Source: Candidatus Helarchaeota archaeon
Lineage (GTDB): Archaea; Asgardarchaeota; Lokiarchaeia; Helarchaeales; RDOG01
Length of the DNA: 64,000 nt
Assembly: GCA_019058315.1 (NCBI GenBank)
Contig: JAHPZH010000007.1
Location: 128,001 to 192,000 of the forward strand
Reading direction: 5' to 3'
The translations under genes were made by a program, and so were the position numbers. The notes beneath the pieces are model-generated. The model was not told the origin of the DNA. It saw only the letters and a program-made list of their open reading frames with translations, and did not search any database. Position 1 is the stretch's first letter. Each line of letters opens with the position of its first letter. This document shows, piece by piece, positions 42,873 to 55,023 of this stretch.

Positions 42873-43568
42873 TTAAATTACATCATGCGAACGAATTTTA
42901 TCTAATTCAATAAGATTTTTCGATAAATCTTCTCTTATTTTTGATAAATCTTCTTCTCTATCCGCTAAAGCGTTCTTTTTAGTAAGTAATTCGATATTAA
43001 TTTTACTTAAATCCTCTTGAGCGACTTTTAAATTCTTAGTCAACTTCTCGATATTCTTTTCTATTTTTTCTCTTTTTTCAGATGTTTTATCTAATTTTTG
43101 AAATGTATCTTTTTCCTTGGCAAGCTCAAATTCTTTCTTAGAAATCTCATCTCTTAAACTTGATATCTTTTTTTCTATTTTTCCAATTTCTTCTCTATCC
43201 CCAGTTATCGCAATCTCCATTTGGGCCACACTTTTACGAACTTTAGAAATTTCAAGCTCTAATTCCGAAATTTGTTCATTAAGAAGTGCTTCTTGCATAC
43301 TTTCGGTAATTTCGTCTTCTGTAAATTCTATAATTCCTGCATTTTTAATTTCGTTTTTTTCATTAACCTTATTCCGAATTTTTTCGGCTAATTTCTCTCT
43401 TATTTTGGCGGATTCTTCTTCCATCTTTGCCAATTTCTCTTGTTCTTTTGCAATTTTGAGTTGGACTTTAATTAGTTCAAGTCTAGATTCAGCGGCGATA
43501 AGTTCTTGCTTGGCCAAATCTTTGTTTCGTTGTGCTGCTTGCTTAAGTTTCTGAATTTCTTCATCCAT
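42873..43568 (-). CDS. Coiled-coil protein
   Basis: Continuous E/K/L heptad pattern over about 230 aa. Confidence 0.75.
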   Translation of the reverse strand: MDEEIQKLKQAAQRNKDLAKQELIAAESRLELIKVQLKIAKEQEKLAKMEEESAKIREKLAEKIRNKVNEKNEIKNAGIIEFTEDEITESMQEALLNEQISELELEISKVRKSVAQMEIAITGDREEIGKIEKKISSLRDEISKKEFELAKEKDTFQKLDKTSEKREKIEKNIEKLTKNLKVAQEDLSKINIELLTKKNALADREEDLSKIREDLSKNLIELDKIRSHDVI

Positions 43569-43659: not shown

Positions 43660-44052
43660 TTAGATATTGGAATTATATAAAGTTACTTTGCTTGCCATTA
43701 TTTCTATAAAATCTCCAACTTTTATCAAATCTGTTTTTTTCACATCCAGCATTATTGAACTTGCAGGTGATAAGGATATTACTATTACCCCATCATCATA
43801 AATTTGATCAATTTTACCATGTATTATTAAATTATTGCGTTGGTAATCAATTAAAGGTTTATTTTCTGTAATTTTATTAATATTTTCTCCCCATAGTAAT
43901 TTATCATTTATATTAAATTCAACAAAATATTTAGATCCTACATTTGGTGTTTCTCCATCCCACTTGGCTGCCCCAGAGCCAAATTTGGTTTCAAACCATA
44001 TCAAGATCCTATCTTTACTTCTTTCAATAATACGCTTAACTATTATTTTCAT
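43660..44052 (-). CDS. Hypothetical beta-rich protein
   Basis: 130 aa ORF with ATG start; no motif confidently recognised. Confidence 0.6.
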   Translation of the reverse strand: MKIIVKRIIERSKDRILIWFETKFGSGAAKWDGETPNVGSKYFVEFNINDKLLWGENINKITENKPLIDYQRNNLIIHGKIDQIYDDGVIVISLSPASSIMLDVKKTDLIKVGDFIEIMASKVTLYNSNI

Positions 44053-44080: not shown

Positions 44081-44413
44081 CTAATATAACTCCCTTCTCT
44101 TTTTTTCAAATTTTTTAATAGTATCTACCTTCCGAATAATGTTTGGTCTCCATTGGGTTGCTTTTACAATTGTTCTTAGCATAACACCATTTTTACCAAT
44201 AAGTAGACCTGGTTTTCTGGCTTCAATTATTACTTCACCAAGAGCTTCATCAAACTCAATGCTTGTAATTCCTGCATTTGGTGGGCTTAATTCAATAATC
44301 TTTTTTTCAGCTTGTTCAGGCGGTAATCTATGCTTGAAATCTGAGTATTTATCTATTCTTTTTCTAATTTTTTTAGACATTTCTTTAATTTGTTTTTTAA
44401 AATCCTCTTCCAA
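44081..44413 (-). CDS. Stand-alone KH-domain fragment resembling the N-terminus of aCPSF1/FttA
   Basis: IKEMSKKIRKRI...RLPPEQAEKKI...AGITSIEFD...GEVIIEARKPGLLIGKNG...W.P.IIR; no metallo-beta-lactamase domain. Confidence 0.8.
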   Translation of the reverse strand: MEEDFKKQIKEMSKKIRKRIDKYSDFKHRLPPEQAEKKIIELSPPNAGITSIEFDEALGEVIIEARKPGLLIGKNGVMLRTIVKATQWRPNIIRKVDTIKKFEKKRRELY

Positions 44414-44538
44414 TTTTATTTTCCTCGTTATTGTATTTTCATATAAGAATTAGTTAAAATGATAATTAATATCTTCCAAATTAGTAATTCTCTATATTTT
44501 TCTTTATAAAAATATTAATACAAAATAAATTATTACAT

Positions 44539-45072
44539 TTAGACATTTGCTGCATTTAATAAAGAATGGTATAAGAGCTTTGAAATAGAATTCAAATAAA
44601 TTTCAAATTCATCTTTAAATATTTTAAATAAATTTCTATAAGGATGTTCTAATATTTCTGGATTACTTTTAACCCAATTGCATTTTGGATCAAGTACAAA
44701 GTAATATTCTTTTTTTGAAATTTGCTTAAAATTTCTTATTGGAAATATTTTACACATCACAGGTTTATTCTCATGAATAGAACAACCTGAATTCTCACTA
44801 TAAAAAGGGCAAGGGAGGTTTAAAAAGTAATGAAATGTAAATTCTTCTTTGTTTAAAGGATTTACTATTTTTTCTTTGGTAATTTTTAATTTTAAATTAC
44901 GTTTTCTTGCCTCTAACTCTAAAAAGTTCTTCTCATCATTAGTTATTTGTAATTTCTTAAAAAGAGAAACACAACATCTATTTTTACATTGCTTGCATGA
45001 ATATGAATTTGAATTATTATTAATCGAATGTAAATTAATTTCAGTGAAATAAGTCTTGAAATTATTTAAAAT
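44539..45072 (-). CDS. YkgJ-family cysteine-cluster protein; start extended to ATT at 45072 (or a nearby non-NTG codon)
   Basis: Hand translation upstream of the track ORF gives YSCKQCKNRCC...LPCPFY...GCSIHENKPVMCKIFP in one open frame. Confidence 0.8.
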   Translation of the reverse strand: MLNNFKTYFTEINLHSINNNSNSYSCKQCKNRCCVSLFKKLQITNDEKNFLELEARKRNLKLKITKEKIVNPLNKEEFTFHYFLNLPCPFYSENSGCSIHENKPVMCKIFPIRNFKQISKKEYYFVLDPKCNWVKSNPEILEHPYRNLFKIFKDEFEIYLNSISKLLYHSLLNAANV

Positions 45073-45168
45073 TGGTCAGCTCCAACCGATGAAATTTTTT
45101 ATAACTATTATTTGATTATTATAATAAAATTGTTTAAAATTTGTGAATTAAAAATTTAAGTGAAATGA

Positions 45169-45507
45169 TTGCATTTATTTGTATACGGGACTTTAACAGA
45201 CGAGGTATTTCTCCACCGCGTAACTAAAAGACCATTCGGACACTTTCAAATTATTGAAGCCAAACTACCCGAATATAAAAGAGATTCATCAATAAAAATA
45301 TCAAAGTGTGACCATGATTCAGCAGTTAATGGCCGATTAATTTTAAATCTAGATAAAAATGATCTAGATCTTCTGGATTATTACGAAAGTTGTAATACTA
45401 ATAATGCTGAGTCAGATCAAAATAATTGGTATAACCGGAAAATAGTCTCTGTAATTACAAGTGATAATAAAACGTTTAATGCATACGTATACATTCCCAA
45501 TTTTTAG
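45169..45507 (+). CDS. Gamma-glutamylcyclotransferase (AIG2-like) protein
   Basis: LFVYGTL, V.G.L, LDYYE, Y.R..V.V, AYVY. Confidence 0.88.
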   Translation: MHLFVYGTLTDEVFLHRVTKRPFGHFQIIEAKLPEYKRDSSIKISKCDHDSAVNGRLILNLDKNDLDLLDYYESCNTNNAESDQNNWYNRKIVSVITSDNKTFNAYVYIPNF

Positions 45508-45534
45508 AGTTTATAACATTTTGGTGATTAATTA

Positions 45535-46860
45535 ATGTCCATCTTCAAAAAAAAACCACTTGGCAAATGTCCTCGCTGCGGAAATGTAACACATGCAAGA
45601 TGGATTAAATTAGGTAGAGAAATTAAATGTGAAAATTGCGATTTTAAATTAAGGGTTATTGTAAAAAGAAAACAAAATTTAGAGGATAAAAAGAAGCCTT
45701 TGGGGATTGTTGATACAATAGAAGAAGCTTATGGAATTTCTATGGGTATTGAAATTGAAACTTATACCATTAGAATTTCAGCTGGAAAATATTCGATTGG
45801 ATATGACGATGTAGTATACCCTAAAGAGCAAGTTTTTGAAGATGGAGAAATATTTACCCAAGATCTTACCATTGGTTCTGAATTTAATAGTCCAGTTTTT
45901 TATCAACTTTATAATGCGTATTTTCGCTTGAAAGCCAGTCTAAGAAAATATAATGTATTCCAAGATAAAACTGAAGAAAATGTGGAAAAACGAATCTGTT
46001 TTATGGGAACATGGTTGGATGCGCCGGCGGCAACACACTTTCATATTGGATTTGGTAAAGATGGAATAGGCGAACAAGATGCGGAGTATATTGCGCAGCA
46101 TGTTCATAGTCATTTACCTTTTTTGATAGCATTATCCGCAAATTCACCAATTTTAAATAATGAAATTACTCCAATTGCCTCGAATAGGTTAAAAGAATTT
46201 CCATATTGTAATCCCATTGCTATAAAAGATTTCTTTAAAGAATACGAGAAATTAAGTGATTATCATTTTACAGAAATGAATTATAATACCTTTCCTGGAA
46301 GTGGGGAGGATACTAAACCTCCTACCCTTGAAATTAGAGTAGCTGACTCAAATATTCCCGAATATTGTATTGCTTGTCTTGCAATTATTCAAGCTATCGT
46401 ATTAAAAGCTATTAGAAAGAAAAAAGGTAAACCCGTTAAACCCCCTAACATATGTGATTATGACAATTACATTGAAGCACGAAATAATGCAATTAATGAT
46501 GGATCAAATGCAATATTATGTTGGAACAACAAACCAGCGAAAGTTCCAAAATATATTGATAAATTCTTTTATTTCTATAAAAAAGAATTAGAAGAAATCG
46601 AAATTCCACCTAAAATTTTAGATGTTTTTAAATATTTAAAATCTGGAGTTAATATGGCTGATATGATTCGGGAATCATGTTCTAAAATGAAGGAAAAAAA
46701 TCCAGCTAATTGGGAGAATGAGTTTGCTAAACAATATGTTTCAGCATTAGAACAAAATTTAGAAGGAAATGATCTCGAAAACTTCGCAGGGTATTTAGGT
46801 ATTAAACTTCCAAACATTTCCAAAACGATTTTAGGAGAAACATCATTTTATTCTCCTTAA
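45535..46860 (+). CDS. Glutamate-cysteine ligase (GCS2)-like carboxylate-amine ligase with N-terminal Zn ribbon
   Basis: CPRC...CENC; GIEIE, EFNSP, HFHIG, ALSANSP, TLEIR..D. Confidence 0.85.
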   Translation: MSIFKKKPLGKCPRCGNVTHARWIKLGREIKCENCDFKLRVIVKRKQNLEDKKKPLGIVDTIEEAYGISMGIEIETYTIRISAGKYSIGYDDVVYPKEQVFEDGEIFTQDLTIGSEFNSPVFYQLYNAYFRLKASLRKYNVFQDKTEENVEKRICFMGTWLDAPAATHFHIGFGKDGIGEQDAEYIAQHVHSHLPFLIALSANSPILNNEITPIASNRLKEFPYCNPIAIKDFFKEYEKLSDYHFTEMNYNTFPGSGEDTKPPTLEIRVADSNIPEYCIACLAIIQAIVLKAIRKKKGKPVKPPNICDYDNYIEARNNAINDGSNAILCWNNKPAKVPKYIDKFFYFYKKELEEIEIPPKILDVFKYLKSGVNMADMIRESCSKMKEKNPANWENEFAKQYVSALEQNLEGNDLENFAGYLGIKLPNISKTILGETSFYSP

Positions 46861-46901
46861 ATCATAACATTTTTTCCTCTAATTCTTGTTTTTCGTGTGA
46901 A

Positions 46902-47525
46902 TTATTCTTTTATGAATAAAAACGCCAGAATAAAAATCCATGACTGATAGGCATATATTGAAATCCGTTCAAATAATCCCAATAATTCAATATTATTCAT
47001 CATCAATACCGAAGTTAAGCCACCAAAACTAGCCATAATAATCAGTGTAATTATTGAATATAATCTAAATGATTTCCACTGTTTCTCACTGTAAAGACCT
47101 ATCCCAATCATTGGTATAGCTAGTACTATTAATATAATGTTTAATCCTGTGAGAATTATATGCATTGTTCCAGGGAAAGTTCCGGGCATAGGAATAGCAG
47201 TAAAAGGATCCATTGGAAAAATACTCCCCGATAATGCTGAAAATATTCCCAGAATCATAATGAATATGCCACCTAAGAATATTAATTTACTCTGCTCAAA
47301 TTTATAATATGTAATTACTCCAATTCCAAAAATAACTAACATAATTGCAGAGATAACGAAAAGCGAACTTAATAAGTAAGTATTTTTAGAACCAGCTTGA
47401 GTTAATTCACTCACCGCATTTATAATTGGACTATAGCCTTGTGTAATGATACTACCGATAATATCATTTAATAAAAATACGATGGGACCTAAAATACCAC
47501 CATAAAAGAGAAGTTTTTTATCCAT
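46902..47525 (-). CDS. DUF998-like membrane protein
   Basis: GYSPI...VSEL, IFPMD, H, GLFERI; about 6 TM segments. Confidence 0.8.
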   Translation of the reverse strand: MDKKLLFYGGILGPIVFLLNDIIGSIITQGYSPIINAVSELTQAGSKNTYLLSSLFVISAIMLVIFGIGVITYYKFEQSKLIFLGGIFIMILGIFSALSGSIFPMDPFTAIPMPGTFPGTMHIILTGLNIILIVLAIPMIGIGLYSEKQWKSFRLYSIITLIIMASFGGLTSVLMMNNIELLGLFERISIYAYQSWIFILAFLFIKE

Positions 47526-47670
47526 GTCTTTATCATCACCGAATTATTATTGCAAATAATCTCGTTGCTTTATAAAATCAATGTTTTTATATCTTATTAA
47601 AAATATAATTAGATAATTTTATTTATATTTATTGATAATTATTGATAGTACTATTTTTGGTGGAGATATT

Positions 47671-49950
47671 TTGAAAAAAAGTAGCGATCAGACTAAAGAA
47701 ACGATATTAACCATGCTTTCAAACCCACTACGCTCACAAGTTCTGAAATTTCTAAGTCAACAAAGCCCATTATCATTTACGGATATAATGGAAAAATTAA
47801 AAATGGATCCCTCCACAGATGCTGGTAAATTTGGATACCATCTTAGAGCTTTGAAAGATACCCAACTAATCAGTGGTGGATCCGAATCGGGTTATAGGTT
47901 AACCAAAATTGGAGAAAAAGTAGTTGAGTTTTTATGGACTTTAGGTGATTTGATAAAATCAGAAGCTCTTGGAGAAATCCAGGTTAGAACATCAAGATAT
48001 TCAGTTGAAAAATTTGACAGAAATAAGATAGCCCTAGCTCTACAAAAAGAAGCAAATATTCCTAGAGATCTTGCTGAAGATATTTCAAAAGAAGCTGAAG
48101 AACGATTGATTAATTCAAAAATTAAATATTTTACCGCACCCTTGATACGTGAATTTGTTAATTTTATCCTTTTAGAAAGAGGTTTAGAAAATTATCGACA
48201 TGCTCTTACAAGATTGGGTCTTCCACCATATGATGTTAAAGAATTAATAAAATCACAAAAGAGCATTTCAAATCCAACATTTATAAAAAGAATAGCAGGT
48301 GATGCTATTCTGGAACAATATTTATTATTAAATGTTCTGGACCATAAAATAGCCGATGCTCATTTAAGTGGTGATATTTTCATTCCAAATGCTAATTATT
48401 TCATCTTAAGACCAAATTCTGTACAACATGATGCACGAATTTTTTTCAGTGAAGGTCTTCCAAGTATGGGCTCTCTAATTGCAATAAGCCCTCCAAAGAG
48501 CTTTAGAACCGCTTTAGGCATTATAGCAAAAATTTTTAACATTTCAAATAGCGCAAGCGACCAATCCTTTGATCATTTTAATGTATTTTTAGCCCCTTTT
48601 ATAAAAAATTTATCACAAGACGATATAAAGAAAAATATTCGAATTTTTTTGGAAGATATCGGCTATCAATTCGATTCCTCAGGAATAAATATTAATTTAG
48701 AGTTTTTAATACCTTCATATCTTCAAGATAGTCCAGCAGTTGGTCCCGATGGTAAGGTTAATGGTATTTATGGGGATTATTTGGAGGAAACACAATTATT
48801 ATTATCGTTACTATTAGATGTGCTAATAGAAGGAGATATCAAAGGGCGTCCCTTTCTTTTACCAAATCAAATTCTTAAAATTCGTCCTGAGGTATTAGCT
48901 CGTGATGAATATAAACCATTATTAATGAAAGTCCATGAGTTAATTCTAAAATTTGGAACACCTTTTTTAGTGAATGCAACGAAAGATTGGCAAACTAAAA
49001 ACGTTAATTTAACAGGAGGTCTAGATCGACTCGCGGCTACATGGAAAGAAGTAGAAGTAGATACTTTACGGACTGGAAATTTAGATTGGGTCATTATTAA
49101 TCTCCCTAGAATTGCTTATGAATCGGAAAATGACGATGATAAATTTTTTGATTTATTAGATACTAGATTAGATTTATCTTATAATGCTTTAAAGCAAAAA
49201 AAAGAAATAATTGATATAAGAATGAATGAAGATAGACTACTACCTTTCTTATCTGCTTCGGTAAAGGGAGAGCCTTATTTTCGAATTGAAAATGCCTCTT
49301 TTTCTATTAGCTATCTAGGTTTACCCCAAGCAGTTAAAATACATACGAATTCAAAAGTATCTGATCATACAGGTTTTAATTTCGCAAAACGAATATTGGT
49401 ATATTTAAATAAATTTTCAAAGGAATCTAGTGAGAAATCAGGTCTTAGGTTTACAATAAAGCAATCAATTTCAAATGGATGGGCCTTCAAACTGGCGGAA
49501 TTGGATAGAGAGTATAATATCTGGAGAAAACGAAAAATAGATGCTAAGCATCAATTCGACTTTTATACTGCAGAAAATTTATTCTCCTCAACCTCTATTC
49601 CGATGAAAAAAAGAATTCAATTAGAAGGAGAATTTCAACAGTATCTTAAAGGCGGTCATATGTCTTTAATCTCAATTGATAGTCCATCATTTGATAGTAA
49701 AAATCTATTGGAGATTACTCGTGATATTTGTAATTCTTCTATAGGAATATTTGGATACGTTCATAACCTTACTTATTGCTCTTCATGTGGTATTAGTTTA
49801 AACGGAATTCATGAAAAATGCCTTAAATGCAGCTCTGCAGGGACTAATATTAACCATTATAGCCGTCAAGTTGGACCATATAAAATTATTTCTCCACAGA
49901 ATAATATTATTATGAATAATATTAAAAATCGGCAAATTTATTCGGCATAA
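47671..49950 (+). CDS. wHTH + ATP-cone + class III ribonucleotide reductase (NrdD)-like protein, catalytic residues lost
   Basis: LSNPLR..L..L...LSFTDIM...GKFGYHL (wHTH); VRTS...EKFDR.KI...TAPLIRE (ATP cone); AHLSGD, GNL..V.INLPR, GGH, CSSC..CLKC; GGAGAT SD before TTG at 47671. Confidence 0.85.
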   Translation: MKKSSDQTKETILTMLSNPLRSQVLKFLSQQSPLSFTDIMEKLKMDPSTDAGKFGYHLRALKDTQLISGGSESGYRLTKIGEKVVEFLWTLGDLIKSEALGEIQVRTSRYSVEKFDRNKIALALQKEANIPRDLAEDISKEAEERLINSKIKYFTAPLIREFVNFILLERGLENYRHALTRLGLPPYDVKELIKSQKSISNPTFIKRIAGDAILEQYLLLNVLDHKIADAHLSGDIFIPNANYFILRPNSVQHDARIFFSEGLPSMGSLIAISPPKSFRTALGIIAKIFNISNSASDQSFDHFNVFLAPFIKNLSQDDIKKNIRIFLEDIGYQFDSSGININLEFLIPSYLQDSPAVGPDGKVNGIYGDYLEETQLLLSLLLDVLIEGDIKGRPFLLPNQILKIRPEVLARDEYKPLLMKVHELILKFGTPFLVNATKDWQTKNVNLTGGLDRLAATWKEVEVDTLRTGNLDWVIINLPRIAYESENDDDKFFDLLDTRLDLSYNALKQKKEIIDIRMNEDRLLPFLSASVKGEPYFRIENASFSISYLGLPQAVKIHTNSKVSDHTGFNFAKRILVYLNKFSKESSEKSGLRFTIKQSISNGWAFKLAELDREYNIWRKRKIDAKHQFDFYTAENLFSSTSIPMKKRIQLEGEFQQYLKGGHMSLISIDSPSFDSKNLLEITRDICNSSIGIFGYVHNLTYCSSCGISLNGIHEKCLKCSSAGTNINHYSRQVGPYKIISPQNNIIMNNIKNRQIYSA

Positions 49951-49978
49951 ATGGTTAAAAAAGGTTCAAGGTTAGGAT

Positions 49979-50320
49979 TTAAGTTAAATCTAATTTAATA
50001 AATTCATATTCTCTGATAAATTTACGTTGTGTAATATAGCTATATGCCTCGATGACCATTTTATTTTCATAAATTCTTCCATCATATTCAACTATACCAC
50101 TAATACTAGTCGTTGTAAATTTTATCCGAATACTACTTAAAATGAAATTACCTTTACCTACTGATTTAACAGAATCTTTAACAAACCATTTTTTCATTGA
50201 TTGAGGAGATGTTTTCGAATAAGCGGTAATTACCGTCCCATCTTCAAAAAATCTAATATAATGACTATAATCCTCCAATTTACTCCTATAAATTCCATCG
50301 AATCTTAACAAATTGCCCAA
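49979..50320 (-). CDS. Hypothetical protein
   Basis: 113 aa ORF, LRFDGIY...YIRFFEDGTV. Confidence 0.6.
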   Translation of the reverse strand: MGNLLRFDGIYRSKLEDYSHYIRFFEDGTVITAYSKTSPQSMKKWFVKDSVKSVGKGNFILSSIRIKFTTTSISGIVEYDGRIYENKMVIEAYSYITQRKFIREYEFIKLDLT

Positions 50321-50490
50321 CTCTAATTTTAGATTGAACTAAATAAGAGTCAAAATCAATAAAATATTGCATTTCCAAATTTTAAAAAATTTATATTTTA
50401 ATTATTACTTAACGTAAAATAGTAAATGAAGAAATTTGGGGAGTTAAAATGGAAAAATGGTTACTTCAGTTATTTAAAAGGATGATTTAA

Positions 50491-51702
50491 TTGACTTATC
50501 GAAATAGAAGACATAGAATGTATTTAGAATTCGGAGGACCAAAAATTGCCAAAAAATTTGAACTTGCTCAAGTACGTGGAATGGATGAAATTGAAAATGG
50601 AAAAGTTTCAATAATTGGTTCAGATTTAAGAGATTTGGAACAAGGAAAATCGTATCCAATTGGAATTCTTATTGAAATTGCTGGAAAAGAAGTTAAAAAA
50701 GAGTTAGAACCGATTTTTGAGTGTAGAATTAAGGATTTCACAGATAGTATTGGTAATATGTTTTATGTATATCATCGATCAGATATTTGGTTTAGATTCT
50801 CAACATTTGTCTATGAAAGAGGATTCAACTCTCTCAAAGTGTGGGGTGAAATGTTGATTGCTTCTTATCAAAGGGAATACGAAAAAATTATTGAAAAAAT
50901 CCAAATAACTTTTTTTACTGAAGAGAATAAAGTTAATGAATGGCATGAAAAAGCCACTAAGATTTATTGTTCAAGAGATGACCAAGTAAAATCTCTTTCA
51001 GACGAGAGAGTTGATACTTTTTTTGGGTGTGCTTTGTGTAATTATATTGTTCCAAATCATTTTTGTATAATCACACCAGACAGTTGTGGTCTATGCGGTT
51101 CAATAAACTGGATTAATGCAAAAGCAAGTTTTGAGCTGGATCCAAAGGGTCCAATTTTCTTCATCAGAAAGGGACAAAGTATAGATACTATTAGTGGTGA
51201 ATGGAGCGGAATTAATGAGATCATTAAGGCAAGAACCCTGGGTCAAATTGAAAGAATTCATCTTTACACGATTCTAAGCCCATTTAACCATACTAGTTGT
51301 CATTGCTTAGAGGCAGTCGCCTTTTATATACCTGAGGTTGATGGGATAGGAATTTTAAATAGAAATTTTAAAGTGCCCGCTATTAATGGATTGCCATTTT
51401 CAACTATGTCAAGTGTAATTAGGAAAGGAGAACAAAGTTATGGTTTTGTTGGAACAGCAATAGGACAAATGCGCTCCCCAAAATTTTTACAAGCTGACGG
51501 TGGATGGGATAGAATTGTTTGGATAACTAATCATGTAAAAGATCGCATTAAAGATGATATATCGATTGAAATAGTTAATAAAATCGCAACTGAATCGGAT
51601 GTAACTAATTTAATGGAATTAAAAGATTTCCTTATATTAAATAATCATCCCATAGTTAAAAAATGGACAAAAGAAATATATAATTCTAATTTTGAGGAGT
51701 AA
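50491..51702 (+). CDS. cdhC: Acetyl-CoA decarbonylase/synthase beta subunit homolog (divergent, orphan)
   Basis: EFGGPK, CALC...C...LCG, HTSCHC.E, IPEVDGIG, GLPFS, SPKFLQADGGW.R.VW, HP. Confidence 0.85.
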   Translation: MTYRNRRHRMYLEFGGPKIAKKFELAQVRGMDEIENGKVSIIGSDLRDLEQGKSYPIGILIEIAGKEVKKELEPIFECRIKDFTDSIGNMFYVYHRSDIWFRFSTFVYERGFNSLKVWGEMLIASYQREYEKIIEKIQITFFTEENKVNEWHEKATKIYCSRDDQVKSLSDERVDTFFGCALCNYIVPNHFCIITPDSCGLCGSINWINAKASFELDPKGPIFFIRKGQSIDTISGEWSGINEIIKARTLGQIERIHLYTILSPFNHTSCHCLEAVAFYIPEVDGIGILNRNFKVPAINGLPFSTMSSVIRKGEQSYGFVGTAIGQMRSPKFLQADGGWDRIVWITNHVKDRIKDDISIEIVNKIATESDVTNLMELKDFLILNNHPIVKKWTKEIYNSNFEE

Positions 51703-51770
51703 ATGTTAACGGGATGGTTGTTCATAAGAAACTAGATACTTAAATTCGATAAATTGTTGAATTAATTATT

Positions 51771-52388
51771 GTGATTTTAGATGATGAATTGCTTGTTCCA
51801 CGTAAATTATATATAGATGCCGGAGTTCACTTTGGAACTGCCAAAAAAACTTCAAATATGGAACCATATATTTATAAAACTATTAATACGGGCAAAAACC
51901 AAATTAATCTTATTGATATTCGAAAAACAGCTGCCAGAATTCGAGTAGCAGCAAAGTTTATTTCTAGATACCACCCAAATAAAGTTCTAGTAACTTCAAA
52001 GCGAAGATATAGTCATCAAGCAATAAAAAAATTTTCAGAAATAATTGGTACAAAATATATAAAGGGGGAAATTAAACCGGGAACTTTAACAAATTATTCA
52101 TCTAAGCATTATATTGAAACGGATTTATTAATTATAATTGATCCTAAAAAAGATGTTGATGCGATAAATGAATCTTCTATTTCCAAAATACCAATAATAT
52201 GTCTGTCTAATACAGATAATAACTTCATAAATGTCGATTTGGTGATTCCGGCAAATAATAGAGGAAGAAAAGCATTAGCATTAATTTTTTGGATTTTAAC
52301 AAGGCAAGTTCTTTTGGAAAGTGGTGAAATAAAATTTTTTAGCGAATTTAATTTTCCAATTTCCGACTTCCTTTCCCCCTTACATTAA
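51771..52388 (+). CDS. rps2: 30S ribosomal protein uS2 homolog (divergent)
   Basis: LLVP...Y..AGVH.GT, M.PYIY, PGTLTN, DP..D..AI.E, PANNRGRKAL. Confidence 0.88.
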   Translation: MILDDELLVPRKLYIDAGVHFGTAKKTSNMEPYIYKTINTGKNQINLIDIRKTAARIRVAAKFISRYHPNKVLVTSKRRYSHQAIKKFSEIIGTKYIKGEIKPGTLTNYSSKHYIETDLLIIIDPKKDVDAINESSISKIPIICLSNTDNNFINVDLVIPANNRGRKALALIFWILTRQVLLESGEIKFFSEFNFPISDFLSPLH

Positions 52389-52472
52389 ATTTTATAAATA
52401 TAGTTCATATTAAGTAGAAAATCTAAATATTTGAATTAAAAAATGATTAAAGGAATATAAAAAAGGGATTTT

Positions 52473-52886
52473 ATGGTCAAGTCAAAGAAAAATCTAGATA
52501 TTTATGGTCTCATCGTAATAGATCGTTCAGAAATGACAATAGCCACATTATCTGGTGGTAAAAAAAATATTATAAAGATAATGAGTGCAGCCAAACCATT
52601 TAAACGATTGGAGCGTTGCGAAATACAGAAAAATTATAGACCCCTTATTGAACAAGCTACACAGGAGTTCTTCATTCGTGCAGGAGAACACATTAACAAT
52701 CAATTTTTAAGTCTACAATTAAAAGGGATAATTATAGGGGGAGGTGGACCAACTAAAAAATATTTCGTAAAAGGTGATTATTTAGATAATCGTTTAAAGG
52801 AAAAAATAATTGCTATAATCGATATTGGTTATTCTGGTGAGCAAGGTATTGACGATTTAATTAAAAAAGCCAAATTAATATTATAA
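52473..52886 (+). CDS. Stand-alone aRF1/eRF1 middle (M) domain lacking GGQ
   Basis: YGLIVIDR.E.TIA.L.G, LIEQ...EFF.R.GE..N..F, GIIIGG.GPTK..F..GDYL..RL...I...D..YSGEQG...L. Confidence 0.8.
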   Translation: MVKSKKNLDIYGLIVIDRSEMTIATLSGGKKNIIKIMSAAKPFKRLERCEIQKNYRPLIEQATQEFFIRAGEHINNQFLSLQLKGIIIGGGGPTKKYFVKGDYLDNRLKEKIIAIIDIGYSGEQGIDDLIKKAKLIL

Positions 52887-53224
52887 AATGGCGATAATTA
52901 TAAATAAAGGAAGTAAATGTAAACTAGTGCGGTACTAGTCTAATAAATTTAAAAATTAATTACATTTTTTATGAGATTTTTTCTTCTATTTATTCTAAAA
53001 TATTTCAATTTCGAAAATTCGCATTTCTTGTATAAATGCTTATTAAATTCCTTAAAAAATTGTGGGGTTTTTATTATTTTTTAAAAATTCACTATTGTTT
53101 TGAATGGAAAAAGAGTTAGATTAATTAAAAAAATATCAATTTAATTAGATAAATTTATCAAAAAAAGTTTAAATAATAGAAAAACCCATTATGATTATCA
53201 AATTCAATTTAATTTTTAAAAGGT

Positions 53225-53395
53225 ATGGGATGTCTTGCGATGAATATTAGAACTTTTCCAAGATATTGGTATCATAGAAAGATTTTGAAAGCTCCAGTCG
53301 AGAAATCAGATGATATGGATCCCAAAATACAAGATATTAATCCCAAAATAGGAAAAGCTGACCCTGGCCCTACTAAAAAATCCAAATTAATCTAA
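53225..53395 (+). CDS. Possible small protein (51-56 aa; start 53225 or 53240)
   Basis: Hand translation MGCLAMNIRTFPRYWYHRKILKAPVEKSDDMDPKIQDINPKIGKADPGPTKKSKLI; higher-GC patch inside an AT-rich gap. Confidence 0.35.
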   Translation: MGCLAMNIRTFPRYWYHRKILKAPVEKSDDMDPKIQDINPKIGKADPGPTKKSKLI

Positions 53396-53603
53396 AAACA
53401 ATTGAAATAATCCAAATTCATATTTAATTATATTTTTTTTAATTAATTATTTGTTATTTTAAATAAACGAATTATACTATTTCTAAAATTTTTATAAATA
53501 CCATAAATAAGAAAAAATTCTATTCTGAAATTTAAATTGAGATTATTTATTCTTTGGACTCAAAAAATTTATTTTATAACTGAATAAATAAAAATAGATT
53601 AAA

Positions 53604-54542
53604 TTGACTAAAACTTCTGAGATTTCATTTAATGATAGGGACATAATTTCAATCAAAGATTTAACTCGCGATGAAATTGAATACATTTTAGACATTGCAC
53701 TTAAAATGAAGAAATATCATGATGACCCTACTGATCTTTTAAAGGGAAAAATTCTCGCAACTCTTTTTTATGAGCCCAGTACTCGAACCCGTTTGAGTTT
53801 TACAAGTGCAATGTTAAAATTAGGAGGGGAAGTAATGGGGTTCAGCGATCCAAAGGCTTCATCTGCTGCAAAAGGTGAAAACTTATCTGATTCTATTCTT
53901 TGTATTGAAAGTTATTGTGATATTATAGTTATTCGTCATAAATTAGAAGGGAGTGCCAGATTAGCAGCTGAAGTTTCTAAAAATCCTATTATTAATGCTG
54001 GAAGTGGGACTCAGGAACATCCTACTCAAGCTTTATTAGATTTATTGACTATCAGGAACGAATTTAAATCATTAGATGGTCTAAAAATTGGAATGGTTGG
54101 GGATCTAAAATATGGTAGAACAGTAAAATCCCTCTCCTATGCACTTTCATTATATGATGTTGAATTATCATTCATCTCTCCTTCCATGTTAAGCATGAGA
54201 AAAGAAGTATTAAAGGATCTTGATGATGCTGGAATAAAATATGAAGAATTTTCTGATTTAAGTTCAGTTCTTCCCTCATTAGATGTGATTTACGCTACCC
54301 GTATACAAAAAGAACGTTTCCCCGATCCTGCGGATTATGAAAAAGTTCGAGGATCTTATAAAATAAACAAAGAGTTTTTAAATAATGCAAAAGATTCAAT
54401 GATTTTAATGCATCCTTTACCCAGAGTCGATGAAATAGCATTTGATGTTGATAAACTCCCTTGTTCTAGATATTTTATTCAACCGCTTAATGGTGTTTTA
54501 ATTAGGATGGCATTACTTGGGTTAGTATTAGGAAAAATATAA
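53604..54542 (+). CDS. pyrB: Aspartate carbamoyltransferase catalytic subunit
   Basis: FYEPSTRT, HPTQ, GDLKYGRT, RIQKER, HPLPR. Confidence 0.98.
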   Translation: MTKTSEISFNDRDIISIKDLTRDEIEYILDIALKMKKYHDDPTDLLKGKILATLFYEPSTRTRLSFTSAMLKLGGEVMGFSDPKASSAAKGENLSDSILCIESYCDIIVIRHKLEGSARLAAEVSKNPIINAGSGTQEHPTQALLDLLTIRNEFKSLDGLKIGMVGDLKYGRTVKSLSYALSLYDVELSFISPSMLSMRKEVLKDLDDAGIKYEEFSDLSSVLPSLDVIYATRIQKERFPDPADYEKVRGSYKINKEFLNNAKDSMILMHPLPRVDEIAFDVDKLPCSRYFIQPLNGVLIRMALLGLVLGKI

Positions 54543-54543
54543 A

Positions 54544-55023
54544 GTGAAAAAAATGGTAGAGAAAGAGCTTAGAGTTAGAAAAATCAAGCAAGGCACAGTT
54601 ATAGATCATATAAGCCCTGGAACTGCGTTAAGGGTTTTATCTATTCTTGGAATTATGGGAAAGGAGGGTCATATACTTTCCATTGCTATAAACGTTCCAA
54701 CGGGTAAAAATCAGAGTAACAGAAAAGATATTGTAAAAATTGAAAATAAAGAATTAGAGATTACCGATATTAATAAAATAGCTTTAATAAGTCCTCATGC
54801 TACAATAAATATAATTAGAGACTACAAAGTCGTTAGCAAAGAAAAAGTAAAACTTCCATCAGAACTTAAAGATATTATTAAATGCATTAATCCTAACTGC
54901 ATCACAAATAGTAGAGAACCGATAAAATCGCATTTTACAGTCGAAAATAAAGAACCAATATTATTAAGATGTAATTATTGTAATATTATTATGGATTTAA
55001 AGGATATTTTAAAAAATATATAA
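54544..55023 (+). CDS. pyrI: Aspartate carbamoyltransferase regulatory subunit
   Basis: GTVIDHI, KDIVKIE, CINPNC...CNYC. Confidence 0.97.
   Translation: MKKMVEKELRVRKIKQGTVIDHISPGTALRVLSILGIMGKEGHILSIAINVPTGKNQSNRKDIVKIENKELEITDINKIALISPHATINIIRDYKVVSKEKVKLPSELKDIIKCINPNCITNSREPIKSHFTVENKEPILLRCNYCNIIMDLKDILKNI

Follow-up and report, generated by a model that had tools for sequence, protein, structure and literature searches.

Gene duplication is frequent in Asgard archaea, and tandem paralogues in this group have a median ratio of nonsynonymous to synonymous substitution rates (dN/dS) of 0.367 (PMC13247210). Archaea seldom carry paralogues of ribosomal proteins: in 87 genomes, 26 of them, mostly in Halobacteria, stand beside 5,412 primary genes (PMC3353972). 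Here we describe a patch (positions 44081-52886) of a 64,000-nucleotide window from Candidatus Helarchaeota archaeon, in which diverged copies of four housekeeping genes lie around the gene for an NrdD-like protein. The copies correspond to the KH domain of aCPSF1/FttA, to CdhC (ACS beta), to the ribosomal protein uS2, and to the middle (M) domain of aRF1. The window is C7:128001-192000 of a 5.79 Mb genome (G000; 12 contigs, ~30% GC), the sole member of its genus in the genome collection. We compared it with 40 relatives of 2.6-4.7 Mb, for a total of 41 genomes.

The patch resembles previously described lineage-specific duplications in Asgard archaea (PMC13247210) in that it lies in a large, paralogue-rich genome and holds copies under purifying selection in the published range. 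In contrast to the tandem paralogues of that study, the genes duplicated here are normally single-copy information-processing genes dispersed from their parents, and two of them are internal domain fragments. The second uS2 has a parallel in divergent ribosomal protein paralogues that persist beside a canonical copy, such as the zinc-independent bacterial ones (PMC3353972) – though the host here is an archaeon, uS2 has no metal motif, and any condition-dependent use of the copy would be hypothetical. Since ribosomal protein paralogues are rare in archaea (PMC3353972), a second uS2 is noteworthy even if the process behind it is ordinary.

We observed that the four copies sit in two insertions, specific to this lineage, between genes that are neighbours in relatives, as the synteny comparison proposed in a preliminary description of this DNA made visible. 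To the left, a conserved gene for a 231-aa coiled-coil protein (42873-43568, minus strand) is separated from the NrdD-like gene (47632-49950, plus strand) by 4.06 kb in G000, against 248 bp between the homologous genes in G001, a relative of the same family. To the right, 3.65 kb separate the NrdD-like gene from pyrB (53604-54542, plus strand), which in relatives directly follows or faces it. The two genes share a contig and lie within ~1 kb of each other in 31 of the 40 relatives, across the class and mostly tail to tail. Together with pyrI (54544-55023, plus strand; both genes assigned by Pfam), pyrB is the conserved right anchor of the patch. The corresponding slot of G001, downstream of its NrdD-like gene (C53:1-3057), encodes a 439-aa orphan and a leucine-rich-repeat (LRR) protein and has no pyrB. 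Because G001 holds different accessory genes there, the slot appears to be variable in this family.

The preliminary description had reported five frames in the patch – the four copies and a ‘dead NrdD’ – and all five are present, with the coordinates and homologies that it gave. When the patch proteins were searched against the whole genome by tblastn, each of the five proved to have a better copy elsewhere in G000. Extra copies of the KH, CdhC, uS2, and aRF1-M sequences were found only in G000 among the 41 genomes: for aCPSF1, CdhC, uS2, and aRF1, the searches of the 40 relatives showed the normal full-length gene only. Curated profile scores given below are from NCBIfam and domain matches from Pfam, with PHROG and PADLOC as further family libraries.

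Maximum-likelihood trees were made for the CdhC, uS2, and aRF1-M copies (support given as UFBoot/SH-aLRT), and in each of them the copy is sister to its own parent. Support and branch lengths are 87/93 and 1.01 (parent 0.13) for CdhC, 80/79 and 1.26 (parent 0.29) for uS2, and 89/85 and 0.53 (parent 0.014) for aRF1-M; the three copy branches are 4- to 40-fold longer than those of the parents. Because the trees place all three beside the parent genes of the same genome, they indicate duplication within this lineage followed by accelerated change, as opposed to transfer or contamination. Three junctions (NrdD-like/orf113, orf113/CdhC, and CdhC/uS2) are spanned, at 95-98% identity, by contigs of an independent sediment study, which excludes a chimeric assembly. 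The KH gene lacks contig cover in runs X2 and X3, an absence that was not used as evidence. Joints between contigs that would leave out much of the patch (X4, X6) were dismissed as chance matches in AT-rich DNA, their sides being 21-25 letters long. Close public protein matches carry the names Helarchaeota, Promethearchaeota, and Hodarchaeota.

We estimated dN/dS by the NG86 method, using G001 as the outgroup and an equal split of dS for the branch estimates. Pairwise dN/dS and dS between copy and parent are 0.19 and 1.80 for CdhC, 0.32 and 1.02 for uS2, 0.11 and 2.26 for aRF1-M, and 0.54 and 0.72 for KH. On the branches leading to the copies, dN/dS is 0.31 for CdhC (95% interval 0.17-0.47), 0.45 for uS2 (0.29-0.74), 0.19 for aRF1-M (0.09-0.40), and 0.92 for KH (0.48-1.54), whereas parent branches have values of 0.02-0.20. 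As a second measure, parent DNA was mutated neutrally to the observed divergence in 5000 runs per copy and stop-free frames were counted. The frame stayed free of stops in none of the 5000 runs for CdhC or uS2, in 6 for aRF1-M, and in 66 (1.3%) for KH. Sites invariant among orthologues were kept preferentially in the KH, uS2, and CdhC copies (odds ratios 2.7-3.5), with 25-30% of them changed.

The CdhC, uS2, and aRF1-M copies have been retained under relaxed purifying selection. Neutral evolution, which the preliminary description had considered, is argued against for these three by branch values of 0.19-0.45; the KH fragment, with a value of ~0.9, looks close to neutral, is compatible with neutral drift, and may be decaying. 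The dS values of the four pairs are unequal (0.72-2.26), which points to separate duplications, probably of different ages – a tentative dating, given saturation.

The stand-alone aRF1 M domain (domain 2; 137 aa; 52473-52886, plus strand; PF03464, E = 4e-25) is 67% identical to residues 167-295 of the 444-aa canonical aRF1. Against TIGR03676 it scores 122.9 bits, below the cutoff of 234.7, where its parent reaches 505. The N and C domains are absent, and the HAGGQSQ of the parent reads LERCEIQ between highly similar flanks. In the DNA alignment the GGQ motif has been lost by codon-by-codon point substitutions. These codon-wise changes rule out a compensated double frameshift at the loop, and no other frame encodes GGQ. 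In eRF1, the N and C domains carry stop-codon recognition and most of the contact with the GTPase. Judged by its sequence, the aRF1-M copy would be able neither to recognise stop codons nor to hydrolyse peptidyl-tRNA.

Pelota/Dom34 and other GGQ-less proteins of the eRF1 fold likewise carry the fold of eRF1 domain 2 without its GGQ hydrolysis motif. Pelota, however, is ancient and has three domains, whereas aRF1-M is a recent derivative of aRF1 that consists of the M domain only; G000 also encodes its own pelota. A search for other stand-alone aRF1 M domains of similar sequence in the 75-240 aa range, among 5.8 billion clusters, found none.

The second uS2 (205 aa; 51771-52388, plus strand) is 55% identical to the canonical 211-aa protein encoded at C6:147444-148079. 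Its TIGR01012 score of 216.6 bits is barely over the cutoff of 211.5, against 268 for the canonical protein. It keeps 44 of 59 ortholog-invariant sites and has changed 15. Because a quarter of these otherwise invariant sites have changed, the copy is probably not doing the job of its parent. An orthologue of the copy (P0002, MFX0138559.1; 201 aa, 92% identical) is found in another metagenome-assembled genome (MAG), and this identity is similar to that of the neighbouring NrdD-like (91%; MFX1449911.1) and GCS2 (92%; MFX1449912.1) proteins in yet another MAG. Between the two orthologous uS2 copies, differences fall at 3 of 60 conserved sites and 11 of 138 other sites, which is non-significant (p = 0.56). 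When Joint Genome Institute (JGI) metagenome contigs were scanned for the uS2 copy, the matches were no closer than 22-23%.

In G000 the only in-frame start codons for the uS2 copy are GTG or TTG. In related strains, as seen in the contigs of the sediment study, a 10-nt insertion (GATGATGATT after 51779; region 51771-51790) provides an ATG start (MMIDDE...), which matches the start of the uS2 protein in the other MAG. The canonical uS2 gene is flanked by genes for a Toprim (DnaG-like) protein and an adenosine-specific kinase. Two genes away lies an IS605-type TnpB split into two frames (C6:149903-151174); an intact copy of 423 aa, at C3:1385544-1386815, shares ~92% identity with it.

The lone CdhC paralogue (403 aa; 50491-51702, plus strand) is 55% identical to the canonical 479-aa protein, which is encoded inside a cdh cluster. 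It scores 428.6 bits against TIGR00316 (cutoff 355.95; parent 653.6). About 25 N-terminal and 75 C-terminal residues of the parent are missing, and there are no cdhA, cdhB, cdhD, or cdhE genes around the copy. With both termini and its complex partners missing, this copy too probably has a role other than that of its parent. The preliminary description had regarded catalytic motifs as altered in several of the five frames. In the CdhC copy the Cys-Gly-Cys of the parent reads Cys-His-Cys; all six A-cluster cysteines align, and loss of catalysis would be conjectural.

A 13-codon frame with a good ribosome-binding site (GGGGAG) ends just before the TTG start of the CdhC copy (50449-50490), out of frame with it, and may be a relic of the lost N-terminus. 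We also observed a third lone CdhC in G000 (C5:642230-643585; 451 aa), 35% identical to the patch copy. Its branch is very long, Ser-Cys-Arg-Tyr takes the place of the canonical Ser-Cys-Gly-Cys, and nothing comparable was found in the 40 relatives.

The stand-alone KH domain (110 aa; 44081-44413, minus strand) spans residues 46-136 of the 638-aa canonical aCPSF1, to which it is 58% identical. It has neither the metallo-beta-lactamase nor the beta-CASP nuclease domain and scores 79 bits against TIGR03675 (cutoff 580; parent 922). The GxxG loop is kept (IGKNG), and matches to PF07650 and PF17214 lie at or just under their cutoffs.

The NrdD-like protein (772 aa) has a different history. It combines a winged helix-turn-helix and an ATP-cone domain with an NrdD body, and scores 281 bits against TIGR02487, below the cutoff of 326 (parent 489). 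The canonical NrdD copies of G000, of 708 and 624 aa, are 31% and 24% identical to it. In the alignment, the loop with the thiyl cysteine (CCR) is deleted and the TNS and GGxITH motifs are absent; the same three elements are missing in four of four aligned orthologues from three families. At the C-terminus the CxxC...CxxC zinc ribbon and the glycine are kept, within a motif that reads SRQVGPY where NrdD has SR(I/V)TGYY, and more distant orthologues have neither the zinc ribbon nor the glycyl-radical glycine motif. Orthologues occur class-wide, with 43-56% identity within the order and weaker, full-length matches beyond it. A protein of a further MAG, which also encodes a 92% identical GCS2, is 91% identical.

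The class-wide orthologues, the catalytic-loop loss that they share, and the adjacency to pyrB argue that, on sequence grounds, the NrdD-like gene is an old, class-wide conserved pseudo-enzyme linked to pyrB. The label ‘dead NrdD’ fits the loss of the catalytic loop, but the gene, being ancient and class-wide, does not group with the other four. Its DNA-binding winged helix and ATP-cone domains lead us to infer a nucleotide-sensing or nucleotide-responsive regulator, and its position next to pyrB in 31 of 40 relatives suggests a tie to pyrimidine synthesis. A described counterpart is NrdR, the ATP-cone transcriptional repressor of ribonucleotide reductase genes, which likewise pairs a DNA-binding domain with an ATP-cone and lies beside nucleotide-metabolism genes. 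NrdR differs in that its DNA-binding domain is a zinc ribbon instead of a winged helix and in lacking the whole inactive NrdD body. The NrdD-like gene, whose regulatory function is a prediction, is also linked to pyrB and not to nrd genes.

The left insertion, block A, holds other genes besides the KH fragment. These are orf130 (130 aa; 43660-44052, minus strand), a putatively coding 73-aa frame (44539-44760, minus strand), a GGACT gene (45169-45507, plus strand; PF06094), a gene for a GCS2-type carboxylate-amine ligase (45535-46860, plus strand; PF04107), and a gene for a DUF998 membrane protein (46902-47525, minus strand; PF06197, E = 1.6e-23). A search of 20 relatives yielded a single full-length GCS2-type match, in G005 (42%), and short partial ones in G004 and G014; the protein also has a 92% identical orthologue in another MAG. 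The GGACT/GCS2 pair is a patchily distributed accessory pair among relatives. The right insertion, block B, begins with orf113 (113 aa; 49979-50320, minus strand), followed by the CdhC, uS2, and aRF1-M genes. Neither orf130 nor the 73-aa frame has a match in Pfam, NCBIfam, PHROG, or PADLOC or a paralogue in G000, and orf113 has no credible match in Pfam, PHROG, or PADLOC. In the ESM Atlas, orf113 and orf130 were placed near small bacterial hypothetical proteins, in unnamed clusters.

Between the aRF1-M gene and pyrB lies an AT-rich spacer of 717 bp (52887-53603) in which no gene relic or repeat was detectable. A 25-nt direct repeat with 84% identity joins the 3' end of the aRF1-M gene (52862-52886) to 53374-53398, 512 nt downstream, where the second copy closes a 51-codon frame; it may be due to chance in AT-rich DNA. 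No credible transposase, integrase, tRNA or Rfam element, flanking repeat, intergenic gene relic, or phage (PHROG) or structural gene was found in the patch, and no shift in base composition was seen. PADLOC and PHROG scans gave no credible defence signal there.

An all-against-all comparison identified 270 of the 4961 called frames in G000 as dispersed low-copy paralogues with 40-80% identity. When these flags were shuffled, 52% of trials contained a run of three, and 96% contained four or more within an 11-gene window. The clustering to which the preliminary description drew attention is therefore within what generic paralogue density yields by chance. Since all four copies stem from normally single-copy housekeeping genes, the patch is unusual in kind, not statistically compelling in number. 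Fragment-like paralogues number 47 genome-wide. They are exemplified by a stand-alone NGN domain (C5:41377-41643; 88 aa, 44% identical to Spt5) and by a 98-aa piece at C6:81254-81550 that matches the N-terminus of an 810-aa EF-2-type GTPase. Where G000 has comparable clusters elsewhere, they consist of duplicated operons or of paralogous metabolic genes. One further patch, of paralogues with partners scattered genome-wide (C6:219000-236200), is entirely metabolic, with genes for an NAD synthase, a PPDK-like protein, a GlmS-like protein, a methylmalonyl-CoA mutase, and an aconitase-family protein in two frames.

The explanation that we favour, as probable though well short of certain, is a composite patch: a variable region, prone to insertion, that surrounds a conserved regulator-like gene, has taken in genes duplicated separately within the same genome, and forms no single system. 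The old gene with a winged helix, an ATP-cone, and an inactive NrdD body, beside pyrB, would be the conserved core, and the two gaps flanking it would have become insertion-prone in this lineage. The left gap would then have taken up the GGACT/GCS2 pair, the DUF998 gene, orphans, and the KH fragment of aCPSF1; the right gap would have received an orphan and, after it, duplicates of G000's own cdhC and rps2 together with the central third of aRF1. The four housekeeping-derived copies would trace to separate intragenomic duplications and have since evolved 4-40 times faster than their parents. Because purifying selection appears to hold the CdhC, uS2, and aRF1-M frames open, these three probably do something; we infer a residual function, with non-parental roles of a binding-type or stand-alone kind the probable ones. 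The hotspot for duplication of genes and gene fragments, one of two alternatives in the preliminary description, agrees with the insertions, with the lack of extra copies in the 40 relatives, and with the trees.

Several points weigh against this explanation. Nothing was found that would explain how the insertions came about: repeats, a transposase, and a tRNA were looked for without success. The comparison within the family rests on one genome, G001. The sister-group placements have moderate support (80-89%), and placing long branches is difficult in general. With dS near saturation for CdhC and aRF1-M, ages and dN/dS are rough, and dN/dS is averaged over the time since duplication, so that a recently dead gene would still look constrained. 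Lastly, three unrelated copies lie head to tail with spacers of 68 and 84 bp, an arrangement that would also fit a selected operon.

That arrangement is one of the attractions of the other alternative in the preliminary description, a selected set of decoys or modulators, which we consider unlikely. Under this proposal aRF1-M, uS2, and KH would bind the partners of their parents (the ribosome, aEF1-alpha, terminator RNA, or the elongation complex) and might adjust translation and termination during stress, dormancy, or infection, with CdhC, uS2, and aRF1-M expressed as one unit. Three co-directional genes with short spacers, the purifying selection on them, the preferential retention of invariant sites, the conserved scaffold and scrambled catalytic loop of aRF1-M, and the persistence of the uS2 copy in a second MAG are all consistent with it. 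However, aRF1-M lacks the N and C domains, KH is near neutrality, the copies differ in age, and CdhC has no evident link to translation. There are also no defence or stress genes nearby, and neither the 40 relatives nor the M-domain cluster search revealed co-occurrence outside this lineage. The underlying notion that binding surfaces were kept while catalysis was altered holds for aRF1-M and the NrdD-like protein, is conjectural for CdhC, and is inapplicable to KH and to uS2, which has no catalytic motif.

The copies could instead have no function and be heading for loss, as recent products of a genome that is expanding and prone to duplication, their frames still open for lack of time. For the set as a whole this is unlikely, though KH may fit it – its dN/dS is ~0.9 and 1.3% of neutral simulations stay stop-free. 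Loss of key motifs, the change of 25-30% of otherwise invariant sites, the truncation of CdhC with a possible N-terminal relic upstream, and the weak GTG/TTG start of uS2 with a 10-nt start indel that differs between strains all point the same way. Set against these, the CdhC, uS2, and aRF1-M proteins have diverged by 33-45% without a stop or frameshift, which essentially never happened in the simulations, and have branch dN/dS of 0.19-0.45; a second MAG moreover carries the uS2 copy in intact form, about as diverged as neighbouring genes are. If the blocks were instead carried in by an integrated virus, a plasmid, or another mobile element that had picked up host genes, this would account for their absence from relatives, for the resemblance of orf113 and orf130 to small bacterial hypothetical proteins, and for GGACT, a family also known as a phage auxiliary gene. 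We regard this as very unlikely, with no integrase, transposase, capsid gene, tRNA target, flanking repeat, or composition shift found at the patch and with copies that differ in age and derive from G000's own genes. An assembly or binning artefact that mixed genes of a related organism into the contig might be suspected in a metagenome assembly with 6.6% estimated contamination, and is extremely improbable: the copies are truncated or altered and are not another organism's orthologues, the flanks are syntenic with relatives, and independent metagenomes bridge three junctions. Duplicated markers such as the second uS2 would, we reason, themselves inflate the contamination estimate.

These results indicate that recent, fast-diverging copies of essential, single-copy genes gather in insertion-prone gaps of a large genome from the Asgard group, whose gene duplications are considered relevant to how eukaryotic complexity arose. 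There is a practical lesson as well: copies of this kind raise contamination estimates that are based on marker genes, and may themselves be mislabelled as the genuine uS2 or CdhC. Of the genes in the patch, we judge the NrdD-like gene to be the more promising lead. A bolder reading is that an Asgard archaeon is here beginning a eukaryote-like subfunctionalisation of translation and termination, with the second uS2 and a binding-only aRF1-M as condition-specific ribosome modulators, possibly co-transcribed with the lone nickel-cluster CdhC; this is a long shot. Should any of the copies prove functional, it would count among the rare specialised paralogues of a ribosomal protein or a termination factor in archaea.

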